A program made the translations under genes and the position numbers. From the IMG/VR virus record IMGVR_UViG_3300045988_079499: 42,466 bases of DNA; one strand, 5' to 3'. Source of the DNA: a virus. The first letter of the stretch is position 1. Each line of letters begins with the position of its first letter. Below, piece after piece: positions 694 through 40,669 of this stretch. The notes under the pieces are model-generated. The model searched no databases, was not told the origin of the DNA, and saw only the letters and a list, made by a program, of their open reading frames with translations.

Positions 694-908
694 ACTTAAC
701 AAATGAGGAACTAATTAAATTGGTAGAAGAGTATGATTCAAAAAACTTGGAGTTTGAAGATAATATTAGGGATAATACAACGGTTGAATATAGTGAATTG
801 GAAGACTATAATGCGGGTAACATAATCGTACTACTATGTCTAATTAAACTTAACCAAATAACGATGGATGAAATGTTAGAACAGTGCTTAACTAATCTAC
901 ACAAGTAA
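690..908 (+). CDS. Hypothetical protein (72 aa)
   Basis: ORF with an ATGA overlap onto the upstream gene. Confidence 0.4.
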   Translation: MNLTNEELIKLVEEYDSKNLEFEDNIRDNTTVEYSELEDYNAGNIIVLLCLIKLNQITMDEMLEQCLTNLHK

Positions 909-971
909 GGGAATATATGATATAATAGATTTTGTAAACGAGAATAAAACAAATTAATTGGAGGAATTAAA

Positions 972-5510: not shown

Positions 5511-6243
5511 ATGAGATACGTAGGAAGTAAAAACAGACTTAGTAAAGAACTAGCACCAATTATTCAAAGTTATATTACAGATGACACAGTAGCATATATA
5601 GAACCATTTGTAGGTGGGGCTAATATGATTGATAAAATAAACCATCATAATAAAATAGGTAGTGATTTACACAAGAATCTAATTGCATTATTAAACTATA
5701 CTAGAGATGATTCATCTTTAATACCTTCAAGAATTTCAGAAGAAGAATACAATCGTGTAAAAGCAAATAGAGATAGCTACGAACCATGGTATGTTGGTTT
5801 AGTTGGATTCTGTGGATCGTTTGGAGCAAAGTATTTTGGTGGATACGCTAGAAACAAAAAAGGAGACGATAGCGGTGAGTGGTCAGCTGGTGCTATCAAA
5901 AATTTAAAAAAAACAATCAACACTGTTTAAAGATGTTACATTTGAATGTAAATCATTTACTGATTATAACCCAACTGATTATAAAAACTGTGTCTTTTAT
6001 TTAGACCCACCATACAGAAAAACATTATCTTATTCAACTGGAAACTTTCCATATGCGGACTTTGATAAGTGGGCTATTGAATTAGCTAAAAACAATACAG
6101 TATTAATTAGTGAATACCAAATGCCAGAAGATAAATTTGAATGTATATGGAGTAAAGACACAAAGGTATCTATTACAAATCAAGGAGATATAAAAAATAA
6201 AAAACGAGTTGAAAAATTATTTAAAGTTAAAGGAGGAAATTAA
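5511..6243 (+). CDS. dam: DNA adenine methyltransferase (D12/Dam class) split by a frameshift in an A8 run at 5906..5913. It would be intact with A9.
   Basis: The N-terminal part (5511..5930) has YIEPFVGGANM (motif I). The +1 frame from 5908 to 6243 has CVFYLDPPY (motif IV). The two frames overlap only within the poly-A tract. Confidence 0.65.
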
Positions 6244-6244
6244 A

Positions 6245-6466
6245 ATGATTAAAATTTATACTAAAAACAACTGCATGCCCTGCAAAATGACTAAGAACTG
6301 GTTTAAAAGAAAAGGACACACCTTTACTGAGGTGAATGTAGATGATAACCTAGAAGGGTTAAATGAATTACTTACTATGAACCTAAGAACACTACCTGTA
6401 GTGTTTAAAGATGATGAGTTTGTGAGTATGGGATTCGCACCAAACAAATGGGAAGAATTTAAGTAG
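6245..6466 (+). CDS. NrdH-like glutaredoxin/thioredoxin-fold redoxin
   Basis: MIKIYTKNNCMPCKMTK contains a CxxC motif. Length is ~73 aa, with RBS aaaggaggaaattaaaATG. Confidence 0.55.
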   Translation: MIKIYTKNNCMPCKMTKNWFKRKGHTFTEVNVDDNLEGLNELLTMNLRTLPVVFKDDEFVSMGFAPNKWEEFK

Positions 6467-6478
6467 GGAGGAAGATTA

Positions 6479-7174
6479 GTGTTGATTACATTAGCTGGAG
6501 TAATTGGGGTAGGTAAATCCTCAATGACACGATTATTAAGTGAGTTACTGGAGACTAAAGCAGTTTATGAACCAGTTGAGGATAATCCTCTATTGGAGAA
6601 GTTCTACGCAGATAAGAAAAAGTATGGTTTTCTATTTCAAATTGACATGTTATCCAAGCGCTTTGAACTTATTCAAGAGGCCATGAGTGTTAAAAATGGC
6701 ATTCTTGATCGTTCAATTTATGAGGATTCAATCTTTTTAAAGCAGCTATATGATGAAGGCTCTGTGAACGAGTTAGAATTTGAGGTCTATACTAAACTGT
6801 TGAATCGCATGTTGAAAGAGTTAGAACCATTGCCAAAGAAATCACCAGATTTAATGATTGTTTTAAATTGTAGCTTTGATGAAGAAATTAAACGCATCAA
6901 TAAACGAGCAAGAGATTTTGAGAAGGTTGAAGAAGATACTGATCTATTTGAGTACTTCAAACGACATCACGAAAATTATCAAGACTGGATGGCTAAAGAT
7001 TTAGGTTTCCCTAAATTAATCATAGATGTAACAGAACTTGACTATGTTAATAATCCAGAACACCGTATGAAAGTACTAATGATGATATTAGATGAATTAT
7101 TCCATGTAGGAGCGCTTAGTGGTGAAGAATACACCTATTTCTCTCAAAAACTGTGTCTCTCACGAGCATTTTAA
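6479..7174 (+). CDS. Deoxynucleoside kinase (dNK family)
   Basis: P-loop GVIGVGKSS, plus the DRSIYEDSIF (DRS/ERS) motif. The start codon is GTG. Confidence 0.7.
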   Translation: MLITLAGVIGVGKSSMTRLLSELLETKAVYEPVEDNPLLEKFYADKKKYGFLFQIDMLSKRFELIQEAMSVKNGILDRSIYEDSIFLKQLYDEGSVNELEFEVYTKLLNRMLKELEPLPKKSPDLMIVLNCSFDEEIKRINKRARDFEKVEEDTDLFEYFKRHHENYQDWMAKDLGFPKLIIDVTELDYVNNPEHRMKVLMMILDELFHVGALSGEEYTYFSQKLCLSRAF

Positions 7175-20761: not shown

Positions 20762-20821
20762 ATTATATCATATAATCCCTCAAGTGTGTAAATAAAAAAC
20801 CTAGTCAATTAAGACTAGGTT
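20762..20821 (-). terminator. Terminator (9-bp stem aacctagtc/gactaggtt plus a T-run) followed by an extended -10 TGATATAAT, upstream of gpG
   Basis: The - strand reads aacctagtcttaattgactaggttttttattt...tatgatataatg. Confidence 0.6.
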
Positions 20822-21433: not shown

Positions 21434-21442
21434 ATTATAGCA
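21434..21442 (-). promoter_or_regulatory. Extended -10 TGCTATAAT upstream of the major tail gene
   Basis: The - strand reads atatgctataatt about 45 nt upstream of the ATG at 21394. Confidence 0.4.
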
Positions 21443-21465
21443 TATTATCAACGCTTTGTGTTTGA

Positions 21466-27995: not shown

Positions 27996-28256
27996 CTAGT
28001 CTGGAAGTTCTTTTTTAAATACTTCTAAGTCTTTATATAGATAATCAAAACTTTCTTCAATTTCTGTTAGCATGTAATGTGTTTTTGGTAATCCTTGTGT
28101 AAGTCTCAATGTAATCACTTTGTTAGTATCAACATATTTTTTTAGATTGTCACATTCTGATTTGTATTCTAATAATTCTGATAATGTATAAAAGTGACTT
28201 GTTACTTCTTCTAGTTTTGTTTCGATATTTTCAAGCATTTCGTTTAATGTTGTCAT
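27996..28256 (-). CDS. Hypothetical protein (86 aa) preceded by an early-type leader
   Basis: The - strand reads tgatatacttaattcataagttaagaggaggaaacaacaATG. Confidence 0.45.
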   Translation of the reverse strand: MTTLNEMLENIETKLEEVTSHFYTLSELLEYKSECDNLKKYVDTNKVITLRLTQGLPKTHYMLTEIEESFDYLYKDLEVFKKELPD

Positions 28257-28318
28257 TGTTGTTTCCTCCTCTTAACTTATGAATTAAGTATATCATGGAG
28301 TCTATTATATTTCAACAA
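28257..28318 (-). promoter_or_regulatory. Early-type promoter-leader cassette on the late strand (TTGTTG-17-TGATATACT + TAATTCATAAGTTAAGAGGAGGA)
   Basis: The extended -10 is at 28287..28295. The leader is a match to the + strand early cassettes. Confidence 0.5.
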
Positions 28319-28346
28319 TAAAGATTAAATATTAGAATATTCTAAT

Positions 28347-28383
28347 AAAAAAAAAAGACTCCCTAGTTAGCTAGACTAGGGAG
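28347..28383 (-). terminator. Strong rho-independent terminator (9-bp stem ctccctagt/actagggag plus a T10 run)
   Basis: The - strand reads ctccctagtctagctaactagggagtcttttttttttatt. Confidence 0.8.
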
Positions 28384-28758
28384 GTGTTAGTATCTGCTAG
28401 TATCCACGCCCTACGTTAAGTGTATACTAGCTTTATGTGTGCACGTCATCAAGTAGGGTCATACTATCACACTCTGCGCCAGACACTGTGGCGAGCACTC
28501 ATTTTTAGAGAGGTGGTGTATCCTCTATCCCCGCTGACGGTTAAGGTTTCCAACTCCGTCACAGTATAACCTTAGTCATACGTTTTAGCATACTCTCGCT
28601 TGCGGTGTCACGAGAGGTGTATTAGATTCCACCTATTCATTGATTTACTTAATATGCTTTTGTCAATTGTAGTTGAAAAATTACTGTCACCCTTATTATA
28701 AAATCATACCCGTGATTTTACTTAATTAGTATACCACAACTTTTTAGTTTTGTGTAGG
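28384..28758 (-). ncRNA. Candidate structured non-coding RNA or structured 3' UTR between terS and terL (GC-rich, ORF-free, hairpin-rich)
   Basis: ~375 nt with no ORF of 60 aa or more on either strand. GC content is clearly above the surrounding ~34%. It contains several hairpins and is bounded on its 3' side by a terminator. Strand inferred from the terminator. Confidence 0.3.
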
Positions 28759-29223
28759 TTATCCCTCAAACATTTTCGCAAATGGGTCAAGTACTTCTTT
28801 CTCTTTCTCAGCTGGAAGAATAATCTTCATTCTTGAGTTGATTGTTAGTCCTAAGTCGTTGGTTGCCGTTTTAAGCTCTTTTGAATAGGAGTTCATGGCA
28901 TTAACCCAGGGGTTGGCTTTACCTGTCTCAGGATCAATAGCGCCCATCTGAGCCACCTTCTCTACTGCCTCTGCGTATAAATAATTATAGTTGCAATATC
29001 TAATGACTGTATTTACATCTAACTCACTAATAGGCAGGTCTCCCACATATGCTCCAATGCGATCCCATTCATTGAATGCTTGTGGCAATAGACCTGGTGG
29101 ATAAAAACTGAAGTCCAGCTTTTCATAATTGTAAAGTAGTTCTTCCTCCTTCTCACGCGCTTCTCGTTGTTGAGTGGTCAAGTTACCACTTTGAGCGTTT
29201 AATAGTTTTCGTGGTCTTGCCAT
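28759..29223 (-). CDS. terS: Terminase small subunit (P27 / Terminase_4 family)
   Basis: Starts MARPRKLLNAQSGNLTTQQREAREKEEELLY with RBS aaaggaggagtgataatATG. It lies downstream of the terminase-associated HNH gene. Confidence 0.7.
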   Translation of the reverse strand: MARPRKLLNAQSGNLTTQQREAREKEEELLYNYEKLDFSFYPPGLLPQAFNEWDRIGAYVGDLPISELDVNTVIRYCNYNYLYAEAVEKVAQMGAIDPETGKANPWVNAMNSYSKELKTATNDLGLTINSRMKIILPAEKEKEVLDPFAKMFEG

Positions 29224-29227
29224 ATTA

Positions 29228-29410
29228 TCACTCCTCCTTTGGTACTTCTGTAATTTCAAAATGACGATTACGTCCACCTAGTTTTGTTTTAACGTCCTTA
29301 AAATAGCCACGCTTCTTTCCATAAAATTCATCTGCTTGAAATTGCGATTTGAACTTACGTGTTTGTCCAGTCGCCAAATCTTTTACGTACACAGGTTTTG
29401 GTGCAGGCAT
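29228..29410 (-). CDS. Small basic protein (60 aa)
   Basis: ORF with RBS aagggagg. It is the first gene after the terminator and promoter. Confidence 0.4.
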   Translation of the reverse strand: MPAPKPVYVKDLATGQTRKFKSQFQADEFYGKKRGYFKDVKTKLGGRNRHFEITEVPKEE

Positions 29411-29467
29411 TTATTCTACCTCCCTTACATTATTGTTAAGTTAAAAGCTAACTCCCTTATATCTATA

Positions 29468-29511
29468 ATTATATCATATAAAAAGAACCCTGTGTAGAGA
29501 AACCAGGGTTC
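29468..29511 (-). terminator. Terminator (8-bp stem gaaccctg/cagggttc plus a T-run) overlapped by an extended -10 TGATATAAT, upstream of the packaging genes
   Basis: The - strand reads gaaccctggtttctctacacagggttctttttatatgatataatt. Confidence 0.6.
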
Positions 29512-29599
29512 AATGGTGTCTAATGGGGGATAAATCATATTAGGGAAATAACATACTATATATAGTATGAGTCCTTGATTTACAACACAAGAAACCAGT

Positions 29600-29768
29600 T
29601 TTAAATCACGTTTACGAGGGGAAAAGGGCGTTTTCGAAAGTTCGTTTTTAGAATTTCGTGCGAAGAAGAGGGGGCAGCGATTAATTCGTTATAAAAAGGC
29701 GGGCGGGTAAAAACATTTTGGGTCTCCCTAAAAATAATTTTGGCTGCGCGCTTGTTGATTTAGCGCTG
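29600..29768. other. Candidate cos region: GC-rich G-runs plus repeated TTCGT/CGTTT motifs
   Basis: gagggggcagcg at 29668..29679 and aggcgggcgggt at 29697..29708. Five TTCGT(T)-type repeats lie within about 100 bp upstream. The position between HNH and terS is typical of HNH-dependent cos phages. Confidence 0.35.
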
Positions 29769-30152
29769 TTACCTACCTCTATTTTTCCAACTGTAGCTAT
29801 GTTCTTCCTTGTTGTGACACTCGTAACAGATTGACTCTAAGTTATTTAAATCAAGTCTATGTTTCCATCCATTTGGACTTCTTAATTCTATATTATGGTG
29901 AACCATATCAGCGTTGGTGTACTTGCCTTGTGCTAAGCATACCTCGCAGAGTGGTTGCTCCATTAGCTTAGCTTTACGTGCATTCCTCCATTGAGTACTA
30001 TGATAGAACTGACTGTACTTCTTGTTGTCGTCATTATATCGTACATGTTTATTGTATTGGCTATTGTTATATCCACTATGCTCCGTACAATAGCGCTCTG
30101 GTAGCGTGACATAGTTGCGGCATGAAGCCACTGCACACTTGCGTTGTGGCAT
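29769..30152 (-). CDS. HNH endonuclease (terminase-associated, zinc-ribbon type)
   Basis: CAVASCRNYVTLPERYCTEH, then ...CEVCLAQGKYTNADMVHHNIEL...NLESICYECHNKEEH. Adjacent to terS. Confidence 0.8.
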   Translation of the reverse strand: MPQRKCAVASCRNYVTLPERYCTEHSGYNNSQYNKHVRYNDDNKKYSQFYHSTQWRNARKAKLMEQPLCEVCLAQGKYTNADMVHHNIELRSPNGWKHRLDLNNLESICYECHNKEEHSYSWKNRGR

Positions 30153-30944: not shown

Positions 30945-31136
30945 TCATCTGCCCTTACCTCCTAATAACCAACTCCATACGATAACCAGTTGTGCAATTG
31001 CAAAGCCCCACTCACCTTGCTGAAATAATTGATATGGTAACTTCATACCTAAATAGATAGCAATGTAACCGAAACCAATGATAATCAAAAGACTTAATAT
31101 AATTGATAAACTCGTGGTTAATACGTCTTTCATCAT
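30945..31136 (-). CDS. Small membrane protein (63 aa), the first gene of the - strand module
   Basis: Two predicted transmembrane segments. RBS aaagaggaggagATG. An extended -10 TGATATAAT lies at 31157..31165. Confidence 0.45.
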   Translation of the reverse strand: MMKDVLTTSLSIILSLLIIIGFGYIAIYLGMKLPYQLFQQGEWGFAIAQLVIVWSWLLGGKGR

Positions 31137-31618
31137 ATCTCCTCCTCTTTGTTTCTATTATATCATATATAAGGGATACTGTGTGAGTTAAGTAAACCAG
31201 TTATTAGTGACAAAAACTCAGCCTAAAATGGTCATTTTGTCACTAAATTGCTTGTTTTTGTCAGCGTTTTGTCACTAATTTTGACACCTAAAAACGCTGT
31301 AACCCTTGATAAATCTACATTCTTATTTTTATAATGACAAAATGACAAAATATTATATATATTAATTAAAAAATAAAGTTACTACATTATAATGTAGTAT
31401 TACAGTATATATAAAGAGTATGGTACTTTTTTTGTCATTTTGTCATTAAACTGGTCTCTTACTTAGAGTATCAAGGAATAGAGCGATTTTAAAAAAGTCA
31501 TTTTAGTGTCATATAGTGACAAAAACGCAAAATTAGTGACATTTTTTAATCTTTTCTATTGACGTTGGTTTCTATACATGCTATACTTAGTTCATAAGAT
31601 AAAGAGGAGGAAACAATT
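31137..31618. promoter_or_regulatory. Divergent control region and putative origin: iterons TTAGTGACAAAA / TGACAAAA in both orientations around an AT-rich core with a 20-bp palindrome. It holds the - strand promoter (TGATATAAT) and the + strand early promoter (TTGACG-17-TATACT).
   Basis: TTAGTGACAAAA at 31204 (+), 31235 (rc), 31267 (rc), 31515 (+) and 31533 (+). TGACAAAATGACAAAA at 31335..31350, with its reverse complement at 31431..31446. Palindrome tactacattataatgtagta at 31380..31399. Confidence 0.6.
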
Positions 31619-31855
31619 ATGACACACGAAAAATATGACGAACTACAAAAGAAAATGGACAAGCTTTACAGCGATTTTATTGATCTAGCAGCTGACACTG
31701 AATCAGCAGGCGAAGATATGAGCAAAGTTTCAGAATGGGTAGACAACAACATTCAACCAATTATTAACTGGGTAAAAGATCATGACGCTGAAGAAAAAGT
31801 TCTAGCTGAACTACAAGATGACTATAATAAATTAAAGGAGATGTTAGCATGTTAG
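31619..31855 (+). CDS. Hypothetical early protein (78 aa)
   Basis: ORF after the conserved leader. Confidence 0.45.
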   Translation: MTHEKYDELQKKMDKLYSDFIDLAADTESAGEDMSKVSEWVDNNIQPIINWVKDHDAEEKVLAELQDDYNKLKEMLAC

Positions 31856-32175
31856 TAAAATATTATACAGAAATCATGAAAATACAACTTAGAGAGTTCA
31901 AACGACTCTCTAAGTACCATGATAAGTACGTAAGTAAAATGATGGAAATGAACGAACCAGGTAATATGTCAAATCACAACACCCAACGTTACTGGCAAAC
32001 ACATAACAAAATAGAACAATCTGAGAAAGAAATGCGTATCATAATTGAAGAGTTAAAGGAGTTGAATAACCGCTTTCATTGGCGAGATCATTTACACCAA
32101 GAACGCTTTCATTTTCTAACAAAAGACGAAGAACTATTTCAGAGAATCGTAAAGCTGATGGATATTTACAGATAG
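31849..32175 (+). CDS. Hypothetical early protein (108 aa)
   Basis: ORF. Confidence 0.4.
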   Translation: MLVKYYTEIMKIQLREFKRLSKYHDKYVSKMMEMNEPGNMSNHNTQRYWQTHNKIEQSEKEMRIIIEELKELNNRFHWRDHLHQERFHFLTKDEELFQRIVKLMDIYR

Positions 32176-32186
32176 GAGGAAACAAA

Positions 32187-32348
32187 ATGACTACATTTAT
32201 TATTTTAGCAAAAAGAAACACACAAACCATTCAATTAAGCTACTTAGCTGAAACAATGAGAGGAGCAATTGATGAATTTCGCTTGACATATCCCAAAAAG
32301 AAGTATAAAATTATTGATTGTAAGGAAGCAACTAATTACAATATGTAG
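32187..32348 (+). CDS. Hypothetical protein (53 aa)
   Basis: RBS taggaggaaacaaaATG. A shorter start is preferred to the overlapping 89-aa call. Confidence 0.35.
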   Translation: MTTFIILAKRNTQTIQLSYLAETMRGAIDEFRLTYPKKKYKIIDCKEATNYNM

Positions 32349-32411
32349 TAACAAGTAAACTAACAAACAGTACACTTAGTAGTGTAATCATAACAGAGGA
32401 GGAAAATAATA

Positions 32412-32732
32412 ATGAACAATTTAGATTTAAAAGAAGGACAAACATATATTTGTACAGACACAAAATATAGATGGTGGACTGAAGGTAAAGAATATGAGGT
32501 AGTATTAAACAGTCAAGGTGAACTATGTTTAGTTGATAATGATGGTGATCGCTGGACGCGAGATTCTTTGGAGTACGATCTATGTCAATTTAAACTAAAA
32601 TACAAATCACTAGACCTAAATAAACTAACAGTTTATCAACTAAAAGAGTACGCAGATTTACAACAAGCTCTGGAGTTAGCAAAGAGCGAATTGGATAAAT
32701 TTATTGAAAGGAGTAGACAAAATGAAATTTAA
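32412..32732 (+). CDS. Hypothetical protein (106 aa), a paralog of the C-terminal half of the next gene
   Basis: L(D/N)xKEGQT..C....WWT..KEY.VV.....L..VD.DG..W....L......KLK....DLN.LT..QL.EY is shared with 32971..33282. Confidence 0.45.
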   Translation: MNNLDLKEGQTYICTDTKYRWWTEGKEYEVVLNSQGELCLVDNDGDRWTRDSLEYDLCQFKLKYKSLDLNKLTVYQLKEYADLQQALELAKSELDKFIERSRQNEI

Positions 32733-33282
32733 AATTGGAGATACTGTAAAAGGAATCACATTCGGTACATTTGGTTATGAGACTAAAGAAGGAAAAATTG
32801 TAGAGATTAATGAGCATACCCCAACATGTATGTATGCAATCAGAAGTGACGGGTACAAATGGCACCTAAGAACAGAAACTGTAGAATTAATTGAAAAAGA
32901 ACCCATACCAGTATATATCAAAAACGAACTCAATAAGGATATTTTGCTAAATAAAAAGGAGGAAAACACAATGGCCACATTAGATTTTAAAGAAGGTCAA
33001 ACATTTGTTTGCAAACGTGATGATATAGGCTGGTGGACGAAAGATAAAGAATATAAGGTTGTTTTTGATAAGTGTCATGGACTAGTAATTGTAGATGATG
33101 ATGGATGTAAATGGGATCTACCTAACGATAAGTTGTTGAATGATATCTTCAAACTAAAAGAAAAAATATTTGATCTAAACACATTAACAACAGTACAGCT
33201 AAGAGAATACGTTGGTTTAATTGAAGATAAGGAGGATGCAGAAAACTTATTAAATGAGTTCATTGAAAGGATGAGTGAATGA
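32722..33282 (+). CDS. Two-domain protein: a unique N-terminal domain fused to a C-terminal paralog of 32412..32732
   Basis: An internal RBS plus ATG (aaaaaggaggaaaacacaATGgcc at about 32971) lies at the domain boundary with no stop codon. Confidence 0.45.
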   Translation: MKFKIGDTVKGITFGTFGYETKEGKIVEINEHTPTCMYAIRSDGYKWHLRTETVELIEKEPIPVYIKNELNKDILLNKKEENTMATLDFKEGQTFVCKRDDIGWWTKDKEYKVVFDKCHGLVIVDDDGCKWDLPNDKLLNDIFKLKEKIFDLNTLTTVQLREYVGLIEDKEDAENLLNEFIERMSE

Positions 33283-33455
33283 TGTTCACTATTACAGTAA
33301 CCAAATTTAATGGTGAAGGCGTAGAAACAATATTCTACACAGATGTTAATAAGTATAAGATTACGGATGACTATCTAATATTAGAACGTAAAGAGATTAG
33401 TAGCATTGTATATATTCAAAAAGATCAAGTGTTAGAATTTGAAGTTAATTGGTAA
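33279..33455 (+). CDS. Hypothetical protein (58 aa)
   Basis: ATG overlaps the upstream stop (TGAATGATG). Confidence 0.3.
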   Translation: MMFTITVTKFNGEGVETIFYTDVNKYKITDDYLILERKEISSIVYIQKDQVLEFEVNW

Positions 33456-33533: not shown

Positions 33534-35120
33534 ATGAATGAATTAACGAAAATAGACTATTCAGCACCAGTTGAAGAGTTATTACCTGTTTCAAATAAAC
33601 ACTTTCCAAGTGAGGAGTTTGTGGATTTTAATTCAGAACTAGGACGAATGTACTACGGTGGGAAAGATGGTACACAAGCAAAATTTGAAATCCAACAAGA
33701 ATTGTTTATTGATAAATTTAATCAGTTAGCCTATGTGTATGCACACCCTAACTTAAACGCTCCATATGTGTATAACGCAGACACACGTATCTGGTCTGAG
33801 GTAAACCTAGGTAGTTACAAATATGCTGATTGGTACTTTGAGAACATTTTAGCGCCAAAATTTACACCACAATTCAGAAATCCAGAATTTGGGAATGAAA
33901 TTCGTAAAGAAATGAAGAAACTAGCACCTGAGTTAGCTAATCGTTCCATGACACGTGGGGAACATGCACCATTGGGTGACAACCCTAACCCAAACATTAT
34001 TGCGTTTGAAAATGGCACATATGACTTTAAAACCAATGATATACGTGAGACCAGGTTAGAAGACTACCACACACTCCAATTACCCTATCCGTTAATTAAG
34101 ACAGATGAAACAGATGAACTATTGGCTAAACAATGGATTGACTATCTATTAAAAGATCAAGCACAGACATTATATGAGTATATTGGGTATATGTATTATA
34201 GAGAGTACAAATATCAATCAATTTTGTACCTCTTAGGTAATGGGTCAAACGGTAAGTCTTACGTAGGTGGCTTTATCATGAATAAATTAATTGGTTTCAA
34301 AAACAGCTCAGCAGTTGGTCTAGACAGCTTAGCAGATAAAAACAATCGTTTTGACAAAGCTTCATTACACCATAAATTATTGAACTTTGAAGCGGATTCA
34401 AGTGCCAACTTTGTGAAGGGTACTGAAACACTGAAAAAGCTTTCAGGAGGTCTTGACGCCGTTCATGCTGAGAAAAAGGGTAAAGATGCCTTTAGTTTTA
34501 CCAACTATGCGAAATTGATGTTCTCAATGAATGAACTACCATCCTTTAATGACCGCACCAATGGATGGTATAGACGGATTTTAATATTAAATTTCAATAC
34601 CAATCTTGATACACCAGAAGCACGTGAACGCATTAATGAGTTTAACAAACAACGTGAAGAACGTGAGTCAAAAGAGCAGCTGGGTAAATTTGCCTGGTTC
34701 TGTATTCAGCAATTCAAAAAGATTTTAGACGCTGGTACAAATGGTGAAAACCCATTCACAGAAACTGAAGATATGATTGCGTTCAAAAAAGCTTATATTG
34801 AATCCAACGATCCATCTAAAGAGTTTTTGAGTGAAGTACCTGTAATTGTGGAAGATAAAGAAGGTACTGTTAACCTAACATTATTGAAGAATATCTTTAA
34901 CGTGTACACAAAAGAGAATAATATTAACAAATCAATGAACTGGCGTACCATGAAAGAATTGCTGCTGAAGCAAGGGTTTGAAGAAAAACGTACAAGTAAA
35001 GTACGTGTACTCACTGGTCTAAAAATCGCACGTAACGGAGACAATGAATCCATTAGACCTTATTTAATGAACGCACTAGCAGGGACAGAGTACGTGAACA
35101 TTTTTAACGATGTATTGTAG
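33534..35120 (+). CDS. DNA primase-helicase, P4/D5 family (D5_N plus an SF3 helicase P-loop)
   Basis: LLGNGSNGKSYVGGFIMNKL (Walker A), then ...LLNFEADS. 528 aa. Confidence 0.7.
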   Translation: MNELTKIDYSAPVEELLPVSNKHFPSEEFVDFNSELGRMYYGGKDGTQAKFEIQQELFIDKFNQLAYVYAHPNLNAPYVYNADTRIWSEVNLGSYKYADWYFENILAPKFTPQFRNPEFGNEIRKEMKKLAPELANRSMTRGEHAPLGDNPNPNIIAFENGTYDFKTNDIRETRLEDYHTLQLPYPLIKTDETDELLAKQWIDYLLKDQAQTLYEYIGYMYYREYKYQSILYLLGNGSNGKSYVGGFIMNKLIGFKNSSAVGLDSLADKNNRFDKASLHHKLLNFEADSSANFVKGTETLKKLSGGLDAVHAEKKGKDAFSFTNYAKLMFSMNELPSFNDRTNGWYRRILILNFNTNLDTPEARERINEFNKQREERESKEQLGKFAWFCIQQFKKILDAGTNGENPFTETEDMIAFKKAYIESNDPSKEFLSEVPVIVEDKEGTVNLTLLKNIFNVYTKENNINKSMNWRTMKELLLKQGFEEKRTSKVRVLTGLKIARNGDNESIRPYLMNALAGTEYVNIFNDVL

Positions 35121-36147: not shown

Positions 36148-36353
36148 TGATGGAAATTTATTTGGATAATATACCAAAAATAGAGGTATTATTAGGAATA
36201 ACTAAAAAAGAATGGTTTGAAATTGATAATATTGATTTTCAAGAAGAAACATTTGATGTATTGGACGAAATGGGTCAACCGCATACGTATAATTTTATTG
36301 GTAAAACTATTAGAATTAAGGAGTTTAAAAATGAAAGAAAGTCAGTTCAGTAA
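36147..36353 (+). CDS. Hypothetical protein (68 aa)
   Basis: RBS gggaggaataATGATG. The start overlaps the upstream stop. Confidence 0.4.
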   Translation: MMEIYLDNIPKIEVLLGITKKEWFEIDNIDFQEETFDVLDEMGQPHTYNFIGKTIRIKEFKNERKSVQ

Positions 36354-36681
36354 GCTAGTTGTGAAATATCTAAAAGAAAAAGGAGCATTGGTAAACGTCA
36401 ACACCGCCAACATATTTGACAAAGTTGGGCGTTCTGATGTAGAATGTTGTTATAAAGGGCATTGGATTAGTTTAGAATTGAAGGTGGGTAACTATCAGCC
36501 AGATCCTTTACAGATCACGTACTTGCAAAAAATACGTGATGCAGGTGGCTTTGGGCTAATTCTACGTGACACACTTCAAGAACTCATGGTTTTGTTATCT
36601 TGTATTGACAATGGTATTGAAAGGCAATACAAGCAACCAGAGTTGCCAGAAATTAAAGTGGAGGAGATTACTTATGACTAG
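36331..36681 (+). CDS. VRR-NUC domain nuclease (PD-(D/E)xK)
   Basis: GRSDVECCYKGHWISLELKVGNYQPDPLQITYLQKIRDAGGFGLIL fits the D..E.K...Q pattern. It lies upstream of the SNF2 helicase. Confidence 0.55.
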   Translation: MKESQFSKLVVKYLKEKGALVNVNTANIFDKVGRSDVECCYKGHWISLELKVGNYQPDPLQITYLQKIRDAGGFGLILRDTLQELMVLLSCIDNGIERQYKQPELPEIKVEEITYD

Positions 36682-37177
36682 AGAAATTTGGAAAGATATT
36701 GAAGGATATGAAGGACTGTATCAAGTGAGTGACTTGGGAAGAGTTAAAAGAGCTACAACCGGTAGGATTTTAAAAGGTATGATTAGGGGAAGTGGTTATT
36801 TACAAGTTGATTTATCTAAACAAGGAGCTAACTCTAACAAGTATATCCATCGTTTAGTAGCTCAAGCATTCATACCAAATCCTGAAAACAAACCGCAAGT
36901 AAATCATATTGACGAAGATAAAACAAATAATATGGTTTCTAATCTTGAATGGTGTACAGCTAAAGAGAACATAAACCATGGTACGCGTATTGAAAGAGCT
37001 ATCATATCTAATCAAAAGAAAGTCAAAGCGATAGATATCGCAAATGGCGAATACAATTACTATGAATCAATAATTGAATGTGCAAGACAGTTAGATCTTA
37101 ATCAAGGCAACATTTGTAAGTGTTTAAAAGGTAAACGTAAGACATTAGGGGGATACACTTTTGAATATGCAAAATAA
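36674..37177 (+). CDS. HNH homing endonuclease (NUMOD4 + HNH_3), copy 2, inserted between the VRR-NUC and SNF2 genes
   Basis: IWKDIEGYEGLYQVSDLGRV, then ...NHIDEDKTNNMVSNLEWCTAKEN. About 55-60% identical to copy 1. Its ATG overlaps the VRR-NUC stop (ATGACTAG). Confidence 0.85.
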   Translation: MTREIWKDIEGYEGLYQVSDLGRVKRATTGRILKGMIRGSGYLQVDLSKQGANSNKYIHRLVAQAFIPNPENKPQVNHIDEDKTNNMVSNLEWCTAKENINHGTRIERAIISNQKKVKAIDIANGEYNYYESIIECARQLDLNQGNICKCLKGKRKTLGGYTFEYAK

Positions 37178-38682: not shown

Positions 38683-39423
38683 ATGAAAGAATTAAGACTG
38701 AAAAAGAATGGTAAAGCCCCACTAGTGGCTGGAGCATTTGATGGAGAAGATTATAAACTGATTCAAACGTGGGTGCAAGAAGGTGGAAACGTTGGCACAC
38801 TCACCGGTTCAGCGAGTGGTATTGTAGTCATTGACATTGATAATCACAATGGAGTAGATGGTCTTGGCAACTTAAAAGTTTTTTTAGAAATGTATGACAT
38901 TAAGTTACCTAAGACTAAAGTAGTTAAGACTCCAAGTGGTGGACTACACTACTACTTTAAATTAGATGAGAAATACAATGAAACGCAATTCATTCAAAAC
39001 CATTCCCAACTAGAAGGCGTTGACTTTCAAACTCATGGTAGATATGTAGTAGCACCACCTAGTCAAATTGATGGTAAATATTATGAAGTAGTACGTGACG
39101 TAGAAATAGCAGAACTACCTGAGAAATGGTTAGAGATGTTCACAGATAAAACGATTACAAAAAAGAACAAAAAGAGAGAACGCAGATGGACGGCAACCTT
39201 ATTAGGTGATATAATTGCAGGTAGTGGTGAGGGTGGACGGAATATCTGGCTCACCACTCAGATTGGTAAATTATTTGCAACTGGTTTAAATCATGATGAG
39301 GTGCGTGTATGGTCTCTATATGTAAACCAGATTGGCTGTAATCCACCATTATCAGAGGATGAAGTAATGCAAACATATGAGAGCGTACGTAAGCGTGAAA
39401 TAAGAAGAATGGAGGAAGACTAA
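38683..39423 (+). CDS. Bifunctional primase-polymerase (AEP PrimPol N-terminal domain)
   Basis: GIVVIDIDNHNG (the DxD motif), SGGLHYYF, and GRYVVAPPS. Confidence 0.65.
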   Translation: MKELRLKKNGKAPLVAGAFDGEDYKLIQTWVQEGGNVGTLTGSASGIVVIDIDNHNGVDGLGNLKVFLEMYDIKLPKTKVVKTPSGGLHYYFKLDEKYNETQFIQNHSQLEGVDFQTHGRYVVAPPSQIDGKYYEVVRDVEIAELPEKWLEMFTDKTITKKNKKRERRWTATLLGDIIAGSGEGGRNIWLTTQIGKLFATGLNHDEVRVWSLYVNQIGCNPPLSEDEVMQTYESVRKREIRRMEED

Positions 39424-39527
39424 TGAATTACGATGAATTACTAACTAAATTAGACCAATTATTACCACCAAAGAATCAAACACAGAAGGTGTCTGACAAA
39501 TATTTTATTATTGCTATGGATACTTAA
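39423..39527 (+). CDS. Tiny ORF (34 aa)
   Basis: ATG overlaps the PrimPol stop. Speculative. Confidence 0.2.
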   Translation: MNYDELLTKLDQLLPPKNQTQKVSDKYFIIAMDT

Positions 39528-39630
39528 CAGCGTTAAACAATGTTAATATTATTTCAAAAGAAGACTACCTAAACGCTCACAGGTATGTGACCCATAGTAT
39601 GAGTAAAAATAGGAACAAGGAGGAATAATA

Positions 39631-39831
39631 ATGGATAAGCGATTATTTAGCACAGAGTTTACAAATGGATACTGCGCGACAGTATTCAGCCAATCAAGAT
39701 TTGACTTAAAATATTATGTAGAGGTTTTTCATGTTAATGAACCACAAGATACTCATAGAGTTGATTTTCATACAGCGCGCGAGGTTTTTGGATATTTATC
39801 CGATATTCAAAATTATAAACAAAAAGACTAG
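39631..39831 (+). CDS. Hypothetical protein (66 aa)
   Basis: RBS aaggaggaataataATG. Confidence 0.4.
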   Translation: MDKRLFSTEFTNGYCATVFSQSRFDLKYYVEVFHVNEPQDTHRVDFHTAREVFGYLSDIQNYKQKD

Positions 39832-39847
39832 TCAATTGACTAGTCTT
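39824..39847. promoter_or_regulatory. Perfect 24-bp palindrome aagactagtcaattgactagtctt
   Basis: Exact dyad overlapping the stop codon of the upstream ORF. No T-run follows it on the + strand. Confidence 0.5.
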
Positions 39848-39909
39848 AACGAGAGGAGGGAGGAGGAATATCCCTATAATTAATTATAGCATAAAATAAA
39901 AGTTTTGTG

Positions 39910-39938
39910 TTGACAAGTAAGACACTATATGATATTAT
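39910..39938 (+). promoter_or_regulatory. Early promoter TTGACA-17-TGaTATTAT
   Basis: The -35 is at 39910..39915. The extended -10 spans 39930..39938 (TG at 39930..39931, hexamer TATTAT at 39933..39938). Confidence 0.5.
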
Positions 39939-39969
39939 AAATATATAAACAAAGAGAGGATTTGATATA

Positions 39970-40209
39970 ATGACTACAGTTGAAGAATTAGAAAATACAG
40001 CACGTTACAAAACCAACTCAGGAAAACAATTATTTGATATTTTTGAAGACGACCTATTGACATACGAGCAGGTAACGGGTTTCTACTTAGGTAATACAAT
40101 TAAATATTTAAAACGTTATAAACAAAAGAATGGAGTTGAAGATCTGAAAAAAGTGAAAGTTTATGTAGATCAATTAATTAAATTGGAGGAAAAACATAAT
40201 GAGATTTGA
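39970..40209 (+). CDS. DUF3310-like phage protein (putative)
   Basis: LLTYEQVTGFYLGNTIKYLKRY, then ...DLKKVKVYVDQLI. Confidence 0.35.
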   Translation: MTTVEELENTARYKTNSGKQLFDIFEDDLLTYEQVTGFYLGNTIKYLKRYKQKNGVEDLKKVKVYVDQLIKLEEKHNEI

Positions 40210-40669
40210 ACCATTAAATGAGCCTTACGATATGTATGCCATAACAGATGAAGGTCATGTGTTTCATTTAGACAAAGAACGATATGAAACTGAACTAGTT
40301 GATCCAAAGAATGGAAAAATGTATGTAGTACTTGAAGGTTCACATACAAAGTCACGTAAATTCTACGTCTCTCAATTAGTAGCAGACATGTTTGTTAAAA
40401 ACGAGCATAACTTAGGGTACTTATATTTTAAAGATGGTAACGTACAAAACAGCCACCACACTAATATTGGTTACGCCATTAATCCAAAAGAAGGGGTAGA
40501 ACGTGTGGCACGTCCCTTCAGAAAGAAAGTAGAGCCAAAAAGGCATGCATTAATTGTAGCTATTGGAAAAGCGTGTGAGCAAAAAAACTGGAAAGAAGCC
40601 AATACGCTTGGTAGAGAACTTTGGGAATTAGAAGGAGCAAAATACGCAGACAGAAATAAATTAGTATAG
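40199..40669 (+). CDS. HNH_3-type endonuclease-like protein, copy 3 (divergent)
   Basis: YFKDGNVQNSHHTNIGY resembles the H-DGN..NN...NL motif. The N-terminal YAITDEGHVFHL region is NUMOD4-like. Confidence 0.4.
   Translation: MRFEPLNEPYDMYAITDEGHVFHLDKERYETELVDPKNGKMYVVLEGSHTKSRKFYVSQLVADMFVKNEHNLGYLYFKDGNVQNSHHTNIGYAINPKEGVERVARPFRKKVEPKRHALIVAIGKACEQKNWKEANTLGRELWELEGAKYADRNKLV

Follow-up and report, generated by a model that had tools for sequence, protein, structure and literature searches.

We describe here a repeat array in an Enterococcus faecium phage that we read, at a probability of roughly 70%, as the phage's bidirectional, SaPI-type replication origin, which would be bound, melted, and fired by the phage's own D5-like SF3 helicase. 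This reading draws on direct observations, namely the anatomy and statistics of the array, helicase homology and fold, and a repeat word that co-varies with helicase type across related phages. It also strengthens an earlier, sequence-only reading of the region as an iteron-type origin, since the architecture is SaPI-like and a homolog of the SaPI Rep helicases is encoded in the genome. Throughout, the window denotes the whole 42,466-nucleotide stretch of the IMG/VR record IMGVR_UViG_3300045988_079499, and all coordinates refer to it.

A sequence search with the 4 kb around the array returned Enterococcus phages exclusively. The nearest were siphophages of E. faecium and E. gallinarum (EF36P1-3, dArtagnan, BUCT630, IME-EFm5, and others), which are 85-91% identical to the query over half to two thirds of its length. 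IME-EFm5 is the type of the genus Efemquintavirus and, judged by these matches, the window is an Efemquintavirus-like E. faecium phage. According to the ORF map, all genes are transcribed away from a 482-bp divergent region: the plus-strand block starts at 31619, passes the window end, and continues to 7174, and the minus-strand block runs from 31136 down to 7252. The same map identifies the array region as the sole divergent intergenic region of this small lytic phage genome. PHROGs and Pfam assign the D5-like helicase, a SNF2 helicase, a Prim-Pol, a metallo-hydrolase, a DNA polymerase, and a thymidylate kinase to the plus-strand block. The minus-strand block opens with five small ORFs, followed by an HNH gene, terS, and terL; portal, head, tail, and lysis genes were assigned from the ORF map and the annotation of relatives. 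The earlier description of the region as an early/late divergence point is plausible on this map. The features of the region and the two replication genes discussed below are as follows.

30945..31136, minus strand: first gene of the leftward block, 63 aa, phrog_31810 (PHROGs and relatives' annotation)
31157..31184, minus strand: leftward promoter ACACA-N14-TGATATAAT with an extended -10, recognized as a motif class
31194..31201, minus strand: ACTGGTTT box, left array boundary, inverted partner of 31450-31457 and kept in all array types
31204..31290, both strands: left outer cluster of five sites read from the sequence, with cores at 31208 (+), 31238 (-), 31259 (-), 31270 (-), and 31282 (+)
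31332..31350, plus strand: left proximal tandem pair TAATGACAAAATGACAAAA, two sites 8 bp apart, from an inverted-repeat search
31351..31429, no strand: AT-rich centre of 79 bp, presumed unwinding element, from duplex stability
31380..31399, no strand: perfect 20-bp palindrome, TACTACATTA joined to TAATGTAGTA, on the dyad axis
31430..31448, minus strand: right proximal tandem pair, exact reverse complement of 31332-31350, from the same search
31450..31457, plus strand: ACTGGTCT box directly after the right proximal pair, kept in all array types
31503..31545, both strands: right outer cluster of three sites read from the sequence, with cores at 31507 (-), 31517 (+), and 31537 (+)
31559..31587, plus strand: rightward early promoter TTGACG-17-TGcTATACT, from a promoter scan
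33534..35120, plus strand: D5-like SF3 helicase of 528 aa, annotated 'DNA primase' (Pfam DUF5906 and D5_N)
38683..39423, plus strand: primase-polymerase (Prim-Pol and PriCT_1; PHROGs/Pfam), a separate gene and the likely partner primase

The array extends over ∼340 bp of the divergent region and holds 12 TGACA cores, seven to the left and five to the right of the AT-rich centre. The individual sites are 8-12 nt long, carry an A-tract, occur in both orientations, and conform to the consensus WWARTGACAAAA. In the left outer cluster the spacings include 11 and 21 bp. The 12-mer TTAGTGACAAAA is present in three exact copies at 31204 (+), 31235 (-), and 31267 (-); a near-copy, ATAGTGACAAAA, lies at 31513-31524 with one mismatch, and only the first 9 nt of a second, TTAGTGACATTT at 31533, match. 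The sequence-only reading had listed five copies of this 12-mer in both orientations. The orientations hold, but three copies are exact and two imperfect, and the one placed at 31515 really starts at 31513. Similarly, the mirrored tandem pair that it reported is present, with TGACAAAATGACAAAA at 31335-31350, but the reverse complement is found at 31430-31445, one base off the original 31431..31446. The perfect inverted repeat is longer than this pair and spans 19 nt (31332-31350 and 31430-31448, 100% complementary). The two proximal pairs point in opposed orientations and are separated by 98 bp centre to centre.

The array is genuine and plainly non-random. When the region was dinucleotide-shuffled 2000 times, the TGACA/TGTCA 5-mer had a mean count of 1.1 and a maximum of 5, as compared to the 12 observed, and the 8-mer TGACAAAA had a mean of 0.06 and a maximum of 2. 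Enrichment over a shuffled AT-rich background, on which the earlier reading depended, is borne out by both counts. Over the whole window, TGACAAAA occurs 14 times versus 5.0 in shuffles, and nine of the 14 copies fall inside 31208-31524 (320 bp); the runner-up 482-bp window of the genome holds five TGACA/TGTCA cores. Neither a tandem-repeat scan of the window nor a check of its next most AT-rich gaps for rival origins (5900-6500, 28200-28800, 29380-29800, and 39400-40000) revealed another iteron-like array. An Rfam scan of the window returned zero families above threshold, and a structured RNA was rejected. The GC-skew analysis proposed earlier was carried out as well, and the cumulative skew has its minimum at 30-32 kb. 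This fits an origin, but the turning point is also where the transcription strand changes, so it is not independent evidence and was given little weight.

The centre of the array is the least stable DNA of the phage. The stretch 31316-31415 is 87% A+T, and no other 100-mer of the genome forms a weaker duplex (-98.5 kcal/mol versus a mean of -124.1, SD 5.9); it remains the minimum of the 42.5-kb genome at all window sizes tried (40-150 bp), ∼4 SD off the mean. The palindrome within it, TACTACATTATAATGTAGTA at 31380-31399, is without mismatch and lies 29 and 30 nt from the two proximal pairs, in agreement with the distance of about 30 bp given in the sequence-only reading. The pairs share their dyad axis (31390) with the palindrome, which is centred at 31389.5. 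Among 5000 shuffles of the local 151 nt, 33 produced a palindrome of at least 20 nt, which makes the palindrome alone just moderately significant. As a single strand, 31326-31454 forms a much more stable fold than its shuffles do (z = -6.96). In relatives a different sequence takes the place of the palindrome, in most cases again palindromic or nearly so. At 97-98% helicase identity, the centre of the array holds TACTACATTATAATGTAGTA in some phages and ATATGC-N6-GCATAT in others, so the helicase does not account for every element of the array. The half-site of the palindrome, ACTACATTA, is the iteron word of phage L024, whose helicase is 75% identical, and a related word, GTCTACAC, forms a second repeat family in the array of phage SANTOR1.

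Both flanking promoter-like sites are present where they had been described. The leftward one has TGATATAAT at 31157-31165 on the minus strand and belongs to a class, ACACA-N14-TGnTATAAT, with seven sites in the genome as compared to 0.05 expected; across this stretch, all nine aligned relatives, LG62 included, agree in most columns. The rightward one, TTGACG-17-TATACT with an upstream TG, is unique in the window and, together with its 5′ leader, forms a cassette kept in many Enterococcus phages. A box of the form ACTGGTYT brackets the array in every array type and is also six-fold enriched genome-wide. Upstream of the early -35, the nearest repeat site stops 14 nt short of it (31545 versus 31559), and upstream of the leftward ACACA box the gap is 20 nt (31204 versus 31184); no site overlaps the core hexamers of either flanking promoter. 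It should be noted, as a caveat to the origin reading, that TGACA resembles a -35 hexamer.

Five ORFs separate the array from the start of the helicase gene, which is 1.9 kb downstream. In a phmmer search of the PDB with the helicase sequence, the sole match was PriRep5 of SaPI5 (7OLA/7OM0, E = 2.4e-10). A helicase profile matched PriRep5 with E = 9e-39, profile positions 63-465 corresponding to chain residues 370-755 of 797; the match covers the N-terminal, ATPase, and C-terminal parts and reaches the C-terminal domain of PriRep5. The AlphaFold2 model of the helicase (pLDDT 81.8, pTM 0.77) gave 7OLA as its top Foldseek match (E = 1.7e-19, 433 aligned columns), followed by the D5-type primase-helicases of ASFV and poxviruses. 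The C terminus of the model has a helix-helix-hairpin pattern. This C-terminal domain is homologous to the winged-helix-containing C-terminal domain of PriRep5 and would itself contain a winged helix. The helicase is proposed as the origin-binding, self-loading initiator; the Prim-Pol gene lies 3.6 kb beyond it.

Among the scanned window proteins, PHROGs and Pfam detected no HTH, CI, Cro, or other regulator family, which confirms the earlier statement that no CI/Cro-like regulator is recognizable, and no other initiator-type protein, O-like or RepA-like included. A plasmid search with the helicase found only 28-33% identical helicases, on lactobacillus plasmids.

Comparison with related phages, which had been suggested as a check, showed that the position and layout of the array are kept and that the word changes with the helicase type. 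Eight relatives are alignable across the whole array region. Of four close relatives checked, three have the nine TGACAAAA sites at the same relative positions and SSBHU differs at the right end. Relatives with a non-alignable centre keep the same plan: a leftward promoter, a AAACCAGT box, the left repeat cluster, and a proximal tandem pair on the left; an AT-rich, usually palindrome-bearing centre; and the inverted proximal pair with ACTGGTCT, the right repeat cluster, and the early promoter on the right. For the majority of IMG/VR contigs with a complete array, the contig's least stable 100-mer falls inside that array. The helicase classes and their dominant words are as follows, where identities are to the window helicase.

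Helicase at least 96% identical, 18 GenBank records and 16 IMG/VR contigs: TGAC[AG], 9-15 cores per array versus a background of 1.7 per 500 bp
Helicase 80-82%, L025 and L026: GTGACATTTAGACA, i.e., [TA]GACA
Helicase 75%, L024: ACTACA[CT], 9 copies, without TGACA repeats
Helicase 58%, L021: GTAACA, 12 copies
Helicase 33%, Efquatrovirus SHEF2, PMBT2, and SANTOR1: GTTCT, 11 copies
Helicase 31%, phage 9184: TTGACAA/CTGACAA, 14 TGACA cores
Helicase 29%, LG62 and IME-EFm1: GTAC[AC], 16-19 copies

Among these relatives, helicase type and repeat word vary together. There are seven helicase identity classes and six dominant words, the exception being phage 9184, which shares the TGACA core. A related-locus search with a narrow alignment returned only helicases at least 96% identical. 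In this class, TGAC[AG] was found in 12 of the 13 IMG/VR contigs holding the whole array and in the GenBank relatives examined, and the word is constant across two array backbones that are non-alignable in the centre. GTTCT is likewise constant across two different backbones in the Efquatrovirus class. In DELF1 and L036, TGACG is about as frequent as TGACA at the sites.

As controls, 17 window proteins were compared with seven relatives by tblastn, and the helicase was the only one of them to follow the word. The Prim-Pol (86-91%), the SNF2 helicase (72-81%), and DUF1140 (72-77%) do not track the word, and the HNH protein and the small leftward proteins do not separate the TGACA phages from the others. 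The sequence-only reading had placed the binding protein among the small early ORFs at 31619..33455. This suggestion is not upheld: the 78-aa and DUF1140 proteins (31619..32175) are 59-83% conserved whatever the word, the three ORFs in 32412..33455 are 41-59% identical and variable even among phages with the same word, and none of them tracks the word, whereas the D5-like helicase at 33534..35120 does.

Within the helicase, the ATPase core is 95-100% identical down to the 75% class, and divergence is faster in the first 160 and the last 170 residues, which is the pattern that would be expected if a terminal domain reads DNA. DELF1 and L036, with their TGACG-rich arrays, share no private helicase substitution apart from H144N/Q. 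Because both termini diverge and this is the only shared change, specificity is not assignable to one domain.

Several features of the sample bear on how the co-variation is to be read. It is partly confounded by the relatedness of the sampled phages. In addition, the helicase gene adjoins the array in LG62, IME-EFm1, and L024, where a single recombination could have exchanged both (the array immediately precedes the gene in LG62 and L024). Phage 9184 is informative here, as its helicase is unique in the phage collection and its own distinct array is located 3 kb away with conserved genes between, which argues that the association is not merely physical linkage. The same phage also demonstrates that not every helicase change alters the word, since its helicase and the H1 helicase of the window, only 31% identical, share the TGACA core.

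The origin systems most similar to the array are those of the SaPIs. A SaPI-type origin is one that Rep binds and melts without ATP and that supports replication. SaPI Reps are self-loading helicases that double as initiators, and a winged-helix domain within their C-terminal domain recognizes penta- or hexanucleotide iterons (PMC9371898). The origin, located immediately downstream of rep, comprises 6-12 short iterons in two sets that flank a central AT-rich region, with at least two iterons per side in opposite directions, and two hexamers are thought to load, one per side (SaPIbov1, SaPI1, and SaPI5; Ubeda et al. 2007 and 2012, as summarized in PMC9371898). The window array resembles these origins in its number of cores (12, within the 6-12 rule), in their division 7 + 5 around the least stable DNA, and in the opposed pairs at 31332-31350 (+) and 31430-31448 (-), which provide two sites per side. 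Its D5-like SF3 helicase carries a putative C-terminal DNA-binding domain and is closest to PriRep5 by both sequence and fold, and word and helicase form matched pairs, here by comparison across relatives. The array differs in that its sites are 8-12 nt with an A-tract rather than penta- or hexanucleotides, in its two-tier layout of proximal pairs and outer clusters with a palindrome on the dyad axis, in the separate gene for the primase 3.6 kb further on, and in belonging to a lytic phage rather than a satellite. Most conspicuously, it is not downstream of the helicase gene but 1.9 kb upstream of it, between diverging promoters, and this placement inside a promoter region means that the sites could serve transcription. 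Taken together, a SaPI-type helicase/iteron origin, i.e., a known kind of system with an unusual placement, is well supported.

A comparable proposal exists for the Efquatrovirus phage Abitsa, where a putative origin with seven 10-bp iterons around an AT-rich region was put forward in silico, with a PriRep5-like helicase named as the initiator (Viruses 2026, PMC13517437). That proposal was based on GC skew and a search for SaPI5-like architecture, without a comparative test (PMC13517437). Efquatrovirus phages are Enterococcus siphophages of a sister genus and share the genome plan, and the equivalent GTTCT array is located in the divergent intergenic region of SHEF2, PMBT2, and SANTOR1. It differs from the window in the word (GTTCT versus TGACA) and in a helicase that is just ∼33% identical. 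A literature search found no origin description for the Efemquintavirus-like/IME-EFm5 group.

SV40 offers a more distant parallel. Its large T antigen is an SF3 helicase initiator, two hexamers of which load head to head on a core origin with GAGGC words in inverted pairs adjoining an AT tract and a palindrome, and the origin lies between the divergent early and late units. The array shares with it the SF3 initiator, the inverted short words, the AT tract with a palindrome, and the divergent units. The DNA-binding domains are non-homologous, however, the SV40 core is ∼64 bp as compared to the ∼340-bp array, and transcriptional autoregulation by the initiator, proven for SV40, is a conjecture in the window phage. 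The origins of lambda (O protein) and of RepA-type plasmids are similar in that repeated initiator-binding sites adjoin an AT-rich unwinding element. They have 17-22 bp direct repeats in one orientation, beside rather than around that element, and initiators that are not helicases and need a separate helicase loader; no such initiator is encoded among the scanned proteins of the window. An origin of this kind was considered and rejected, as the sites are 8-12 nt in both orientations and an O-like or RepA-like initiator was not found.

The position of the array between two diverging promoters of different classes, with outermost sites that come within 14 nt of the early -35 and 20 nt of the ACACA box, upstream of each, raises the question of whether it is instead an operator array, through which a phage regulator balances rightward early against leftward ACACA-class transcription, while replication starts elsewhere. 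SANTOR1, with its second repeat family GTCTACAC and an annotated early 'transcriptional regulator', could be taken to favor this. We consider it unlikely. The scanned window proteins lack HTH, CI, Cro, and other regulator families, and it is the replicative helicase and not a small early protein that tracks the word. In addition, the core promoter elements are free of sites, unlike lambdoid operators, which overlap the -35 and -10, and a switch would not need the least stable centre of the genome or inverted pairs 98 bp apart.

Could the TGACA words, without any dedicated binder, be -35-like hexamers for host RNA polymerase, some of them firing inward? ATGACA and GTGACA match TTGACA at five of six positions, and promoter-like combinations are found at 31334-31363 (+, ATGACA-18-TATATT), 31446-31417 (-, ATGACA-18-CATACT), and 31440-31469 (+, TTGTCA-18-TAGAGT); a scan of a 2-kb stretch returned 22 promoter-like sites as compared to 10 in shuffles. 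A stretch with 87% A+T will, however, yield -10-like hexamers by chance, and the exact 19-nt inverted symmetry would be superfluous. The words found in relatives at these same positions, GTAACA, ACTACA, GTAC[AC], and GTTCT, are not -35-like, on which this explanation fails, and we regard it as very improbable. Least credible is a packaging site in which the repeats bind the small terminase subunit TerS near the genome ends. The array is ∼1.9 kb from terS in the same transcription block and two assemblies break within the AT-rich centre, but the identity of TerS to that of the window (75-99%) is independent of the word, with 79% in KEN18 (TGACA), 84% in L024 (ACTACA), and 95% in L025 ([TA]GACA). 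Moreover, dArtagnan, Aramis, and 9184 have linear records whose ends fall between the HNH gene and terS and not at the array, and defined HK97-like cohesive ends have been reported for related phages (PMC13517437).

For the SaPI-type origin, we propose the following sequence of events. The D5-like helicase, whose gene ends 11 nt before the next ORF, would be produced early from the adjacent sigma-A promoter and would read the short [AG]TGACA(AAA) sites through a terminal DNA-binding domain. The opposed tandem pairs may then place a helicase ring to either side of the 79-bp AT-rich centre, and the outer clusters would raise local occupancy. After melting, the rings would separate, and the Prim-Pol and the phage DNA polymerase would begin synthesis. 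Binding, melting, this two-ring geometry, and a start of replication at the array are inferred. Because all genes are transcribed away from the array, the forks would travel co-directionally with transcription.

A tentative extension, which we hold to be possible but rather doubtful, is that the array has a dual role. In an SV40-like manner, helicase bound at the outer clusters next to the sigma-A and ACACA-class promoters could couple the onset of replication to a shift in transcription, and the central palindrome could be a second, independently exchangeable recognition element. In the same extension, the helicase pairs with TGACA, [TA]GACA, ACTACA, GTAACA, GTAC[AC], and GTTCT might amount to a specificity code of self-loading helicases.

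The analysis provides a concrete candidate origin and initiator for a group of E. faecium phages that are under development as therapeutics and have early regions with hardly any annotation. It places a SaPI-type origin with a self-loading helicase in lytic phages, at a different genomic position. Furthermore, the relatives form a graded natural series of helicase/iteron pairs, with helicase identities from 29% to 98% and six words, which is usable for mapping how self-loading helicases read DNA. Such knowledge could help to predict replication incompatibility or interference among co-infecting phages and satellites, and could assist in designing origin-decoy (Per-type) resistance or phage-derived replicons.

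A promoter-like class with the consensus ACACA-N14-TGnTATA[AC]T was found seven times in the window, where 0.05 copies would be expected by chance, and six of the seven copies match the direction of the local coding strand. The extended -10 motif TGnTATAMT is itself enriched, occurring 25 times in the genome against an expectation of 6.4, and most of these copies precede genes. The matches to the ACACA class are as follows.

ACACA-class promoter-like sites in the window
899-926, + strand, motif match
20762-20789, - strand, motif match
21434-21461, - strand, motif match
28728-28755, - strand, motif match
29468-29495, - strand, motif match in the non-coding gap 29411-29768
31157-31184, - strand, motif match
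39883-39910, - strand, motif match, antisense and near the 24-nt palindrome 39824-39847

The palindrome named in the last entry, AAGACTAGTCAATTGACTAGTCTT, is perfect and lies between two + strand genes, and the antisense promoter is aimed at it from approximately 40 nt away. Together, the two elements could constitute a bidirectional terminator or give rise to a short antisense RNA.

The cassette at 31559-31650 comprises an early promoter, a 5' leader, and a ribosome-binding site. Its conservation reaches 75-92% among phages of Enterococcus faecalis and E. faecium, dozens of which carry it, and in relatives it is found in copies ahead of several early genes. A 91-nt match at 78% is also present in a phage of Staphylococcus saprophyticus. 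In phage 9184 (locus L006, 2262-2345), a 14-nt unit, TCTCAACAAATGTA, is repeated in tandem six or seven times between the repeat array and the first early promoter; no such tandem copies are present in the window.

A further element, the ACTGGTYT box, occurs 20 times genome-wide on both strands of the window (3.4 expected), is present in the arrays of every helicase type, and in relatives comes after the -35 element of the early promoter (TTGACACTGGTTTC). Two copies form an inverted pair that flanks the repeat array.

31194-31201, - strand, ACTGGTYT box
31450-31457, + strand, ACTGGTYT box

The central palindrome of the window (31380-31399), considered alongside the loci L024 (9125-9573) and L020 (6017-6643), consists of two inverted copies of ACTACATTA, which is the iteron word of L024, a metagenomic phage whose helicase is 75% identical to that of the window. 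In the Efquatrovirus phage SANTOR1, the repeat word GTTCT is accompanied by 7-8 copies of another repeat, GTCTACAC. Two independent assemblies break within the AT-rich centre of the array (window ~31346 and ~31404, at the equivalents in CAJDKB010000002.1 and the locus L028): one is the vB_EhiS_268 record and the other an IMG/VR contig, and both begin there. Read coverage probably falls off in DNA this rich in A+T, which would account for the breaks.

The gap 29411-29768, bordered by an HNH gene on one side and by a small ORF before terS on the other, contains an ACACA-class promoter as well as a palindrome of 18 nt at 29552-29569. Because the linear records of the Enterococcus phages dArtagnan, Aramis, and 9184 stop at the equivalent place, the cohesive ends are probably located in this gap. 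For some window sizes, 28269-28368 (region 28260-28400) ranks second in the genome for low duplex stability; it holds a further palindrome of 18 nt, together with a promoter-like site and a hairpin resembling a terminator.

Both gene blocks of the window contain scattered endonuclease genes: at least four of the HNH type, plus a fragment of one more endonuclease.

HNH-type and other endonuclease loci
29769-30152, - strand
36566-37177
40199-40669
1753-2262, + strand
36217-36681, + strand

Close relatives differ in the presence of these genes, which suggests that they are actively homing.
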